A stretch of 62,999 nucleotides of DNA, counting the filler, from Globobulimina sp. (taxonomy: Eukaryota): NCBI GenBank assembly GCA_003354225.1. It is 40 parts of 40 records of this genome, joined end to end, with 100 filler letters (N's around TTAATTAATTAA, not from the genome) between each part and the next. Parts side by side here need not be neighbours in the genome. Positions count along the whole stretch, not along the records: positions 18,942 to 20,419 come from PIVH01016050.1; 39 more parts are not named here. The stretch is one strand, 5' to 3'. Positions 17,364 to 20,609 of this stretch are shown piece by piece (position 1 is the first letter of the stretch; each line of letters opens with the position of its first letter). A model generated the notes under the pieces. The model saw only the letters and a list, made by a program, of their open reading frames with translations. It did no database searches and had not been told where the DNA came from. The translations under genes and the position numbers were made by a program.

Positions 17364-18841
17364 TTGACAGTGTCAGTTGTGATGGTCGGACAACTGACGG
17401 ATGAGCTCATTGCTACATTTCCATCTGATTCCCAGTCGTTTAATGTGTTTGATTCGTCACAACGAGCGAATGGAGTTGGTGCAGTCGAAGGTATTATCGG
17501 ATTTCTTGTGGGATATAATGTTGTGGGCAACGATGTTTCTTGCAAATCAGTACAAACTAATGTTACGGAATAAGGACCCCAACCATTCCACTCGTTCTTT
17601 ATAACAAAAATATATTCATCACCAATGGCTACAGCGCCTGGAATAGTGATTTGTCTGGACTGCCAATAGTCTAAGTGACTGACGCAAAAGACGTCTTTGC
17701 CTTCATTGACGATTACAAAACCATGCGAGTCTTTGATTTGCAACCGCGGTGTAAAAAAACCTGAAGTTGCATTACATGCATCTAAGAATACTGTGTTATT
17801 GTTATGCGCAACATTTGCTGTATACAAATATTCAACAGATTCGAATGCGGACCTAAATCCTGTACGCGTTTGGTTGCACGATATTGATGGAAGTGGTGCA
17901 ATGGGTGCTTTTGTGGGCTGATTATTTGGCGGATGGGTTTGACCCAATGTTAATGGCGTTTGTGATGGTGAATAGGTCCATGGACCTAAACAAAATAATG
18001 TGACAGAATAGTCACCAAACTCTGGCTCTGCCCCTCCGCCCCATCCTTCTACGATGAAAGTATAAATCTGATCGGGATATACAGGGCCTGGGATTGTAAT
18101 ATCTCCCGCATATTGATGACCACAAAAGGATTGATCTTCGCCATGCTCAGTATTCCGATAGGAATATGCGATTATATTATTGTGAGAGTCACGAATTGTC
18201 AAAGCTGTATCCTGTGTCATGTCACAAAAACATTTGCATAGATTTGCGAATACAGTATTTGCAGTATATACATTGTTTTTGGTTTGGTATATACAGAAAT
18301 CTTATATACGGAAACATACAAATTCTGATGGACAGCTCTCCAAATATACTATCTCATGTCCAATAGTGCTGGTAAACACAAATGAAACTGTTCCGTTCTC
18401 CAATATCGATCCTGTATGCGTTTCCCCACATGATATGGTATTATTAATTGGTGGAAGTGGTGCAATGGGTGCTTTTGTGGGCTGATTATTTGGCGGATGG
18501 GTTTGGCCGAATGTTAATGGTGTTTGTGATGGTGAATATGTCAATGTACCTAAACAAAATAATGTGACAGAATAGTCACCAAACTCTGGGTAGTCAGCAA
18601 ACTCCCATCCTTCTACGATGAAAGTATAAATCTGATCGGGATATACAGGGCCTGGGAATGTAATATCTCCCGCCCATCTATGACCACAAAAAGATTGATC
18701 TTCGCCATGCTCAGTATTCGAATCGGAATATGCGATTATATTATTCTGAGAGTCACGAATTGTCAAAGCTGTATCCTGTGTCATGTCACAAAAACGGTAT
18801 TTGCAGTATATACATTGTTTTTGGTTTGGTATATACAGAAA
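17364..18841 (-). CDS. Extracellular multi-module protein with Cys-containing beta domains and PT-rich linkers (partial, intron-containing)
   Basis: Repeated modules SC..T.TG...ESCPSEF|DTALTIRDS...YSVTLFC separated by SPSQTP/PTKAP linkers; intron about 18213-18319. Confidence 0.7.
17888..18841. repeat. Tandem duplication, offset about 564 bp, covering exon plus intron
   Basis: 17888-~18299 is near-identical to 18452-18841. Confidence 0.93.
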
Positions 18842-19244
18842 NNNNNNNNNNNNNNNNNNNNNNNNNNNNNNNNNNNNNNNNNNNNTTAATTAATTAANNN
18901 NNNNNNNNNNNNNNNNNNNNNNNNNNNNNNNNNNNNNNNNNGTACCAAATCCATCAGTCCATTAGATCCATCATATAATCCATCCATACGCATCCTTTGT
19001 GTGGACCAATAGAGATTTCCGATTGTGACTGATTTGTAGTATCAAATGGACTGTTCAACAGTTAATGTTTTTCTATTCAATATCCAAAATGAGGCGCATG
19101 ATATTGAGAGATTACGAATACCTGAGATATATATATCAATCTGAATCTGCTCTTAATTAACAGGAATTAAAGTTTTTAAGGTAAACAATTTGCAGCGAGG
19201 TACATCATTATTATCATATACTTTTTGCCCTTCGATTACTGCGA

Positions 19245-20414
19245 TTGCGAAGTTTCAAATACCTGAATCGAACATTTTATACCTATAATATACGATGTTA
19301 TCGTTCAAGTTTACTGCCGCCACACACAAAAATAAAGATGCCATCAATTGGCAAAGATAACGAAGCCGGCGAAATAGTGAAATGGTACAAGACAATCGGT
19401 GATAAATTGAAGATTGACGATGCAATCTGTGAAATTGAAATGGATGATTTAACACTTGATTTGGAGGCAGACGTTGATGGATATTTAGCAGAGATCTCAA
19501 TTCCCGATGGACTTAAAGTAAAATGTGGCACAACCATAGCAAGACAGGTCGAAACAGAGAAAGATTTAGAAACATTTATCGATGCTCTCAAGGTAGTAAT
19601 GTCCAAAATAGATAGATACAATGATCGGACATTTAAACTGTTTTTATTCTATGTTCAGAACAGCAGAGATACGGCAGAACGAGATTTAATATTTGCATAC
19701 CGGATATTGTCAGATTTAGGATATGATTCTTATATAAATATGAATCATTTATCTGTCTCAATACCAATATCCGCTGAAACTCCATGGAACAAAACAATGA
19801 TAACCGGCAAAGATTCATTTTGTTGGCATAATATAACAAAAAAGGATTTGATACAAATTGATATTGAACAAGTAATCAAAGAGAAACAATTTAAAAATAC
19901 AATGAATGATATCGATGCCATGGACATTTATTGTGCATTGATTAAAAAAACGCCAACCATAAATACTTTATTTCATATCAATACGCCGAGTTTGTTAACA
20001 TTGTCATCCATAAAACCCAACGAATTGTTAATGATAAATCCTTTATGTGCTCGTTTTTCGAATAGAATAATTTATGTGGAATCCCTGCATGAAATATACG
20101 ATACGAATTTTATTACATTTGCCAATGTCATTGTTATTAAGAATTTTGGTGTTATCGTAACTGGTTCATCCATTCAACAGGCATTTGATACTTTTTTTTA
20201 CTTTGACAAAATGGTTAAATTACAATTGAAAATATTAAGATTACAAAATTCAAACTCACAGCTTCAAATTATGGAATTGGATGAACAACAAATACATGAA
20301 TATCAAAGCAAATATCAGGTAAATTCGCATAAAATTGCAAAGCAACATTTTGATGCGCGGAAAAGGAGTATTTTAGAAAAAGAGGAGCATTTATTACAAG
20401 AGACACAAGAATGA
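19245..20414 (+). CDS. Lipoyl/biotinyl-attachment domain fused to class II aldolase/adducin-like domain
   Basis: LPPHTKIKMPS...GEIVKWYK..GD...ICEIEMDD...DGYLAEI (PDH-E2-like lipoyl fold), then RDLIFAYRIL...NHLSV...ITKKDLI...KNFGVIVTGSSIQQAF (aldolase II); start codon uncertain. Confidence 0.8.
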   Translation: MRSFKYLNRTFYTYNIRCYRSSLLPPHTKIKMPSIGKDNEAGEIVKWYKTIGDKLKIDDAICEIEMDDLTLDLEADVDGYLAEISIPDGLKVKCGTTIARQVETEKDLETFIDALKVVMSKIDRYNDRTFKLFLFYVQNSRDTAERDLIFAYRILSDLGYDSYINMNHLSVSIPISAETPWNKTMITGKDSFCWHNITKKDLIQIDIEQVIKEKQFKNTMNDIDAMDIYCALIKKTPTINTLFHINTPSLLTLSSIKPNELLMINPLCARFSNRIIYVESLHEIYDTNFITFANVIVIKNFGVIVTGSSIQQAFDTFFYFDKMVKLQLKILRLQNSNSQLQIMELDEQQIHEYQSKYQVNSHKIAKQHFDARKRSILEKEEHLLQETQE

Positions 20415-20609
20415 GCTTANNNNNNNNNNNNNNNNNNNNNNNNNNNNNNNNNNNNNNNNNNNNTTAATTAATTAANNNNNNNNNNNNNNNNNNNNNNNNN
20501 NNNNNNNNNNNNNNNNNNNGTAGGGCTCGTCAAACATTGATGACTAAGTTATGCCATAACTAATATGTCACCTGTGCCACAACTGAAGCGCTGTTGGTTT
20601 CTCTACGTC

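Follow-up and report, generated by a model that had tools for sequence, protein, structure and literature searches.

What could a protein do that joins a lipoyl domain to a class II aldolase fold when each of the two has lost the residues by which it is normally recognized? This question is raised by a gene on contig PIVH01016050.1 of the Globobulimina sp. genome assembly GCA_003354225.1, which lies within a window of 62,999 nt, the window being the whole stretch of DNA that was analysed. A preliminary description of the locus had read one continuous frame carrying a basic N-terminus, a lipoyl domain and a class II aldolase fold, with both domains degenerate. The frame (19245−20414, plus strand) was confirmed to comprise 389 codons without an internal stop, and HMMER searches with Pfam recovered Biotin_lipoyl and Aldolase_II, both above the curated cut-offs. 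The gene is nuclear, belongs to a foraminifer or one of its close relatives, and encodes a lineage-specific protein, which presents a new domain architecture of two known folds, both without their hallmark residues, and is conserved in foraminifera. Judging from its sequence, the protein most likely acts by binding and not by catalysis. The features on which this rests are collected in Table 1.

Table 1. Features of the gene and its contig (positions in the window)
Feature	Coordinates	Strand	Basis
E2p-type lipoyl domain	19329..19541	+	Pfam Biotin_lipoyl PF00364, residues 29−99
Codon GAT (Asp68) at the lipoyl-lysine position	19446..19448	+	Ungapped HMMER alignment to human PDH-E2
66-nt GT..AG phase-0 intron between the two domains	19593..19658	+	Contigs skipping it; absence from relatives
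Second exon: class II aldolase/adducin-fold domain and conserved C-terminal helical tail	19659..20414	+	Pfam, NCBIfam, model, Foldseek; TGA 20412−20414
Tyr229, opposite the His of I-H-A	19929..19931	+	Alignments to bacterial relatives
H244-I-N246 instead of H-x-H (first His kept, second replaced)	19974..19982	+	Alignments; H244 19974−19976, N246 19980−19982
N300-F301-G302 instead of N-H-G (third metal His replaced)	20142..20150	+	Alignments; F301 20145−20147
Presequence-like N-terminal coding region	19185..19337	+	Open frame, without in-frame ATG until 19338
Gene-bearing contig	18942..20419	.	One short contig; adjacent stretches are other contigs behind N/TTAATTAATTAA spacers

A lipoyl domain without its lysine

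The match of the N-terminal part to PF00364 had an E-value of 1.7e-15 and a score of 57.1 bits against a cut-off of 22.1, and covered profile positions 2−71 of 73. The best NCBIfam match of this part was TIGR01349 (PDHac_trf_mito), the mitochondrial-type pyruvate dehydrogenase (PDH) E2, at E = 2.3e-15; it spanned positions 1−89 of the 437 in the profile and reached 56.7 bits against a cut-off of 445. Homology to human PDH-E2 extended over residues 22−114 (19308−19586), both lipoyl domains of DLAT could be aligned, and human and other PDH-E2 chains were the best matches among solved structures. The peripheral-subunit-binding domain and the acyltransferase core of an E2 were not seen, as Pfam showed Biotin_lipoyl and Aldolase_II only.

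Work on E2 domains has shown that the lipoyl-lysine has to sit exactly at the hairpin turn. HMMER paired ‘ceiEMDDLTldle’ with ‘aeiETDKATigfe’ of human PDH-E2 without gaps, and because the alignment of EMDDLT to ETDKAT is gapless, Asp68 occupies the lipoyl-lysine position, as had been described. The cofactor-bearing D-K-A of a lipoyl domain is thus absent, and since the lysine is missing, the domain would be unable to carry lipoate. None of the eight family members that cover the position has a Lys there (the residues are D, D, Q, E, D, Q, D and N, the last in the distant member P0058), which makes the missing lysine a family trait; in P0007 a Lys stands one position before the site. The hairpin was invariant in seven close members at C62, E63, I64, M66 and L69, followed by D72-L-E-A75. 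From this pattern, the tip of the hairpin appears to have been remodelled and afterwards fixed.

The segment between the two domains (residues 100−116, 17 residues) showed a mean identity of 66%, with R100, Q101, V102, T104, E105, L108, F111 and L115 invariant. Being both short and conserved, it argues that the lipoyl domain is not a swinging arm.

An aldolase fold with an eroded metal site

PF00596 (Aldolase_II) matched residues 147−328 over profile positions 2−183 of 183 (E = 6.7e-12; 46.1 bits against a cut-off of 22.2). NF005689, a family of stand-alone bacterial aldolase-II proteins, covered residues 141−381 on profile positions 11−244 of 248 with an E-value of 7.9e-15, and NF005068 gave 1.5e-14. 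A first structural model, built from 12 family sequences, was poor, with a predicted local distance difference test score (pLDDT) of 59.9, and was not used. After 18 of 80 bacterial relatives fetched from genome contigs had been added to the alignment, the exon-2 protein was modelled at a pLDDT of 89.2 and a predicted template modelling score (pTM) of 0.88. A Foldseek comparison of this model with the PDB returned 83 matches at E ≤0.001, and every listed row was a superfamily member or a named aldolase at a probability of 1.00. The leading matches were TqaM, pyruvic oxime dioxygenase, NovR, the Pseudomonas structure 3ocr, 4xxf and adducin heads, followed by YgbL, a pyridine-dicarboxylate decarboxylase and classical fuculose-phosphate aldolases. 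The class II aldolase fold is therefore modelled with confidence, and the model places its neighbours in the metal-dependent branch of the superfamily.

The motifs of the metal site were placed by alignments to beta-adducin, adducin 1, 4xxf and the two closest plasmid-borne bacterial proteins. By these alignments the degenerate motifs listed in the preliminary description, namely Tyr for the His of I-H-A, H-I-N for H-x-H and N-F-G for N-H-G, were all correctly read, and the Globobulimina protein keeps one of the three metal His residues. All 18 bacterial relatives in the alignment have I-H-A, H-T-H and N-H-G. The relatives within the family vary at these motifs (Table 2).

Table 2. Metal-site motifs of the family
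Sequence	H-x-H position	N-H-G position
Globobulimina (window)	H-I-N	N-F-G
P0002	H-I-N	N-H-G
P0003	H-I-M	N-Y-G
P0004	H-I-N	N-Y-G
P0005 and P0006	H-V-N	N-Y-G
P0007	H-I-N	N-F-G
P0008 and P0159	H-I-H	N-Y-G
P0157	H-L-H	Region truncated
P0009	Region not covered	N-H-G
P0058	S-L-K	N-H-G

The first metal His was present in 10 of the 10 foraminiferal-type rows covering it, the second position varied among N, M, H and K, and the third among F, Y and H. All three His residues occurred together in none of the 10 sequences that cover both motifs. As different members keep different His residues, the metal site is eroded to different degrees and not uniformly gone. The expectation that orthologues would lack the metal ligands thus stood in so far as the complete triad is missing from every sequence covering both motifs, and did not stand for the members that keep the second or third His. 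Adducin, cited in the same description as a non-catalytic member of the superfamily, proved a less fitting model, as the adducin chains aligned here retain H-x-H and N-H-G. In the divergent P0157 both H-L-H and the His of I-H-A are intact, an indication that degeneration is less advanced in the deeper branches of the family. The aldolase domain of this member (P0157/P0012, from ENA contigs) is also interrupted by more than 30 inserted residues, among which Asn, Lys, Ser and Glu are abundant.

One spliced gene

The intron between the two domains is inserted after codon 116 and has a pyrimidine-rich run ahead of its AG. The 22 residues that it would encode are missing from all six full-length relatives. 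Contigs of four public sequencing runs were compared with the gene-bearing contig. Position 19592 was joined to 19659 in three contigs, two from run X2 and one from X6 (listed joint 19590>19657, cut +2), and a contig of run X1 covering 19135−20376 had no differences and retained the 66 nt. Runs X2 and X6 belong to two different studies; no library type is recorded for either, and X6, like X8, is taken for RNA by conjecture. Splicing is the simple reading, because the relatives from EukProt transcriptomes are without the 22 residues and contigs skipping them exist. In each of X1, X2 and X6 a single contig spans both domains, in spliced form in X2 and X6, and two transcriptome-derived proteins share the architecture. 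The candidate intron was thereby upheld, and the locus holds one gene and not two. The E2-like segment ends ahead of the intron, and the first aldolase-fold helix follows it; because this is the domain boundary, an origin of the fusion by exon shuffling fits.

A narrow family under purifying selection

A word-based search of 5.8 billion proteins yielded six relatives among 2297 candidates, 59−66% identical and all with both Pfam domains. These six full-length proteins come from four sources, and two of them are transcriptome-based EukProt proteins of the foraminifera Nonionella stella and Bolivina argentea. When a profile of seven sequences was run against 1.84 billion cluster representatives, 9957 matches were obtained at E ≤0.001. 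The best 150 of these included P0003 as the family representative, the family fragments P0008, P0009 and P0012, and an additional protein, P0058, whose match crossed both domains in one stretch. The other 145 had their best stretch in the lipoyl part, and the named ones among ten looked up were eukaryotic PDH-E2; as only the best stretch per row is given, a weak second domain in these 145 is not strictly excluded. P0058, known from one contig, is a protein of 353 residues with both Pfam domains, a basic N-terminus, Asn at the lysine position, S-L-K and N-H-G, and a word-based search for its other relatives (2575 candidates) returned only P0058 itself.

The aldolase part alone, searched in the word-based manner, retrieved only the family (7 proteins among 196 candidates), and its 30 nearest named Atlas clusters contained Aldolase_II alone. 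An Atlas search with full-length P0003 gave no usable match. A metagenome-contig locus (L083) was considered as a family member and rejected, its lipoyl-domain match being only 34%. As judged by these searches the family is narrow, consisting of foraminifera (two transcriptomes), a few environmental contigs and one distant singleton. The architecture is not widely annotated, in that the best 150 rows of the profile search show only the family and the singleton. In the literature searched, no description of a fusion of lipoyl and class II aldolase domains was found, as the preliminary description had anticipated; the supplements of PMC8153729, which were not covered, may list the transcript. 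The main texts of two papers on foraminiferal metabolism contained no mention of lipoyl, adducin or class II aldolase.

Among the seven proteins, mean pairwise identity reached 73% in the lipoyl and 70% in the aldolase part. Compared with the coding sequence of the window, X6 showed 26 listed differences, 20 synonymous and 6 non-synonymous (29 were counted, 3 being unlisted), which gives a ratio of non-synonymous to synonymous differences per site (pN/pS) of 0.073 (206 synonymous and 841 non-synonymous sites; no correction for multiple hits). X2 differed at two positions, both synonymous. The gene is under strong purifying selection and is not a decaying copy.

Predicted assembly and location

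Four copies of exon-2 residues 1−249 were predicted as an assembly with an interface score (ipSAE) of 0.88 (0.86, 0.88 and 0.88 in the separate runs), against 0.02 for the best of three controls. The three runs had at least 85% of contacts in common, and partner pLDDT was at least 81. Of 30 proteins solved as same-chain pairs, 21 reached the ipSAE mark; of 23 solved as single chains, none did. The aldolase-fold part is thus predicted to form a homotetramer, and the oligomeric scaffold suggested earlier gains the standing of a structural prediction. Exon-2 residues 108 (Asn246) and 161−164 (around Phe301) belong to the predicted interface, which would put the former ligand positions at a subunit contact, as expected for the fold.

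The first 31 residues of the frame contain seven Arg and Lys, four Tyr and no Asp or Glu, in agreement with the Arg/Tyr-rich N-terminus without acidic residues first noted. The N-termini of five members comprise 31−41 residues with 5−10 Arg and Lys and 0−1 Asp or Glu, while the remainder of each protein is 15−17% acidic. The segment LLPPHTKIKMP aligns with LPPHQKVPLP of human E2, the first residue of which is number 3 in chain 8piu_B (562 residues) and number 87 or 88 in the chains of 647 residues. Because the LPPH motifs align, the residues ahead of this segment match in position the transit peptide of human E2, which is of corresponding length. In composition and position the N-terminus thus resembles a mitochondrial presequence, and the protein is probably mitochondrial.

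The start codon and the surrounding contigs

The window consists of 40 separate contigs of 1476−1479 bases, arranged in order of length with N runs around TTAATTAATTAA between them; their GC contents range from 27% to 47%. Since it is a chain of separate contigs, only 18942−20419 constitutes genomic context for the gene, and genes that stand side by side in the window need not adjoin in the genome.

The TTG at 19245 is the first start codon of the open reading frame (ORF) lister by convention; the frame is open back to 19185, with a TAA at 19182. The contig holds no in-frame ATG between 19185 and Met32 (19338). Given how often stops occur off frame in the region, the 51 open codons that precede Met32 would arise by chance with a probability of about 0.009. 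This N-terminal region aligns with the N-termini of P0002−P0004, whose Met lies 25−28 residues ahead of the conserved Y-R-S, and an ATA (19218−19220) stands about where the Met of the relatives would fall. The contig of run X2 begins near 19228. No ATG in any frame was found between 19102 and 19294, where an upstream exon or start was sought. Three candidates were rejected: an ATG at 19090 meets a stop after 23 codons, a 15-nt ‘intron’ at 19181−19195 is implausibly short, and an ATG at 19295 is out of frame. The last of these opens a short upstream frame of about 21 codons (19295−19360), which overlaps the conserved presequence frame and Met32. From the sequence, the gene would begin either in an upstream exon off the contig or at a non-canonical (non-ATG) start.

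In run X1 the stretch 18942−19134 was covered only by short contigs with loose ends, at 6 to 59-fold depth compared with 5.5-fold for the gene, and the unique contig starts at 19135. The stretch directly upstream of the gene looks like a repeat, a mobile element or a collapsed assembly, and it may conceal a first exon.

Four ORFs of two neighbouring contigs gave no Pfam match. On the contig at 17364−18841 (minus strand), the ORFs 17312−18220 and 18302−18784 share a repeated module that starts MTQDTALTIRDS..NNIIAYS and contains PGPVYPDQIYTFIVEGW; Pfam recognized no family in either ORF. At the start of the next contig (20600−20700), a GC-rich patch of repeated GCGCAACGCC-like units lies within AT-rich sequence.

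A proposed role as a binding protein

The account that we prefer, and put forward tentatively, is that of a tetrameric, probably mitochondrial, non-catalytic binding protein whose dead lipoyl domains serve as competitor or adaptor. The basic presequence would probably direct the protein to mitochondria. Its lipoyl domain would have been copied from mitochondrial PDH E2 and, without the lipoate-bearing lysine, would take no part in acyl shuttling. The short conserved segment, in place of a flexible linker, would connect this domain to an aldolase-II-fold domain of the adducin/pyruvic oxime dioxygenase/NovR branch that has lost two of its three metal His residues, so that a tetramer of aldolase-fold domains would display four fixed, dead lipoyl domains. 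Such a particle could occupy or bridge the proteins on which lipoyl domains dock, namely E1, E3, the lipoyl-attaching enzymes and, where present, PDH kinase and phosphatase. Its action would resemble the restraint of plant acetyl-CoA carboxylase (ACCase) by the lysine-less BADC proteins.

A binding protein is the simplest reading because both domains, the segment between them and the C-terminal helix have been held by selection despite the lost residues. Canonical metal chemistry is unlikely, since two of the three His residues are lost and these positions drift among relatives. According to PMC13561418, PDH is expressed in all samples of a basal foraminifer, and on that account the presumed target is present in foraminifera. 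It is conceivable, though improbable, that foraminifera evolved a tetrameric lipoyl-domain mimic which, by docking on the PDH complex or on regulators of it, limits or diverts the oxidation of pyruvate, and which could join a switch between aerobic PDH and anaerobic pyruvate use for survival of anoxia.

If the mimic reading were true, no natural lipoyl-domain decoy would have been known before this protein, nor an adducin-like aldolase fold serving as the scaffold of one. Lipoyl domains are known as swinging arms whose sole job is to carry lipoate; a conserved lysine-less copy on an oligomeric pseudo-aldolase would exemplify the conversion of a carrier domain to a binding function, and would offer a handle on the regulation of 2-oxoacid dehydrogenases in a major group of anoxia-tolerant marine protists. 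The two pseudo-domains fused at an intron make a clean case that points to exon shuffling.

Alternative explanations

Several observations weigh against the binding protein proposed above or the steps that lead to it. The second metal His is kept in P0008, P0159 and P0157, the third in P0002, P0009 and P0058, and the His of I-H-A in P0157 and P0058. Conservation among the 18 bacterial relatives reaches at least 90% at 134 positions; the foraminiferal proteins retain 32 of these, including R153, N167, H168, R274, D315, Y319, H368 and R374, and the shared residues could represent a surviving ligand pocket. The family-invariant C193, H195 and C268 could form another site. The assembly prediction was run on four copies, a job unlike its calibration, and without the family alignment, and the tetramer may have passed because class II aldolase tetramers have been solved and the model remembers them. 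The skipped form in X2 and X6 is not by itself proof of RNA, given that their library type is not on record. The start codon is absent from the contig, so the presequence of the Globobulimina copy is incomplete.

Some of these points would be accounted for if the protein were still an enzyme, with a remodelled or metal-free site (formed for example by His244, Asp227, His168, His195 and Cys193/Cys268) and with the lysine-less lipoyl domain as a structural or regulatory appendage. The whole aldolase domain is strongly constrained, the first metal His and many residues of the bacterial enzymes are kept beside new invariant Cys and His residues, some members retain two of the three His, and the nearest folds are chemically versatile, comprising oxygenases, decarboxylases and aldolases. 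Were this so, class II aldolase chemistry would be extended to a site without the usual histidine triad. However, the second and third ligand positions vary (N/M/H/K and F/Y/H) among proteins otherwise 60−70% identical, as is typical of a site on which selection for metal binding has ceased, and the full triad was seen in no sequence with both motifs. We regard a retained enzymatic role as unlikely, although it deserves serious consideration. A second alternative is an intramolecular plug or sensor, in which the hairpin E-I-D/E-M-x-x-L, conserved and both acidic and hydrophobic, would dock in the former active-site cleft at the subunit interface and external lipoyl partners would play no part. 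The interdomain segment is so short and conserved that the lipoyl domain cannot swing far, and the replaced ligand positions fall in the predicted interface; the fold models cover the aldolase part only, however, and the proposal, a conjecture, is distinctly improbable.

An adducin-like organizer of the cytoskeleton or membrane skeleton, unrelated to 2-oxoacid dehydrogenases, might be proposed on the grounds that, among solved proteins, only adducin heads are clearly related in sequence to the aldolase part (E = 8.3e-6 for beta-adducin; 4xxf, at 0.056, was the sole other match at E ≤1) and that they stand among the top fold matches. It is very unlikely, as the protein ends 44 residues past the aldolase domain whereas the adducin chains matched have 724−744 residues, the bacterial aldolase-II families score better (NF005689), and the N-terminus resembles a mitochondrial presequence and derives from E2p. 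Finally, the short contig, the highly fragmented assembly, the repeats at the 5′ end and the lack of an in-frame ATG upstream of Met32 could have pointed to an assembly chimera or a decaying pseudogene of one genome. Against this, the two-domain arrangement recurs in the six full-length relatives from four sources and in one distant singleton, single contigs span both domains in three runs, the frame has no internal stop and pN/pS is 0.07; an artefact is scarcely credible and was rejected.

Comparison with known systems

The binding protein proposed here shares features with several known systems. With PDH E2 (DLAT; TIGR01349) it has in common the homology over residues 22−114, the LPPH motif ahead of the domain and the strand G-Y-L-A-x-I. 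Unlike E2, it is without the lipoyl-lysine, the Ala/Pro-rich linker, the E3-binding domain and the acyltransferase core, and has an aldolase-II domain instead. The E3-binding protein (E3BP, protein X) is likewise a non-catalytic E2 paralogue with a lipoyl domain and was matched by the sequence (2dnc_A and 1zy8_K, E = 1.4e-11 to 1.6e-10). E3BP retains the lipoyl-lysine, the E3-binding domain and an E2-like core, whereas all three are absent from the Globobulimina protein.

The second domain agrees in full-length profile and fold with the stand-alone branch of about 250 residues (NF005689/NF005068, pyruvic oxime dioxygenase, NovR, TqaM, 4xxf and adducin heads), including a C-terminal helix with His368 and Arg374. 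The tetramer typical of that fold is, for the foraminiferal protein, a prediction. The closest bacterial proteins found are about 22% identical and differ in that the Globobulimina protein keeps one of three metal His residues and has Tyr for the His of I-H-A; a lipoyl fusion occurs in none of the 30 nearest named Atlas clusters. Adducin has a basic C-terminal tail after its head and long neck, whereas the Globobulimina protein stops 44 residues after the aldolase domain and shows no such neck or tail.

The BADC proteins are described as inactive relatives of BCCP, the biotin carrier, that negatively regulate plant ACCase. They differ from the foraminiferal protein in being homologues of BCCP, to which the Globobulimina match is weak (E = 0.0029), and in having no fusion to an aldolase fold; a regulatory role has been shown for BADC and is here proposed for the foraminiferal protein. 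The BADC proteins of plant plastids and the Globobulimina protein nevertheless follow a common logic, as each contains a carrier domain from the biotinyl/lipoyl superfamily that is under selection although its cofactor lysine is missing.

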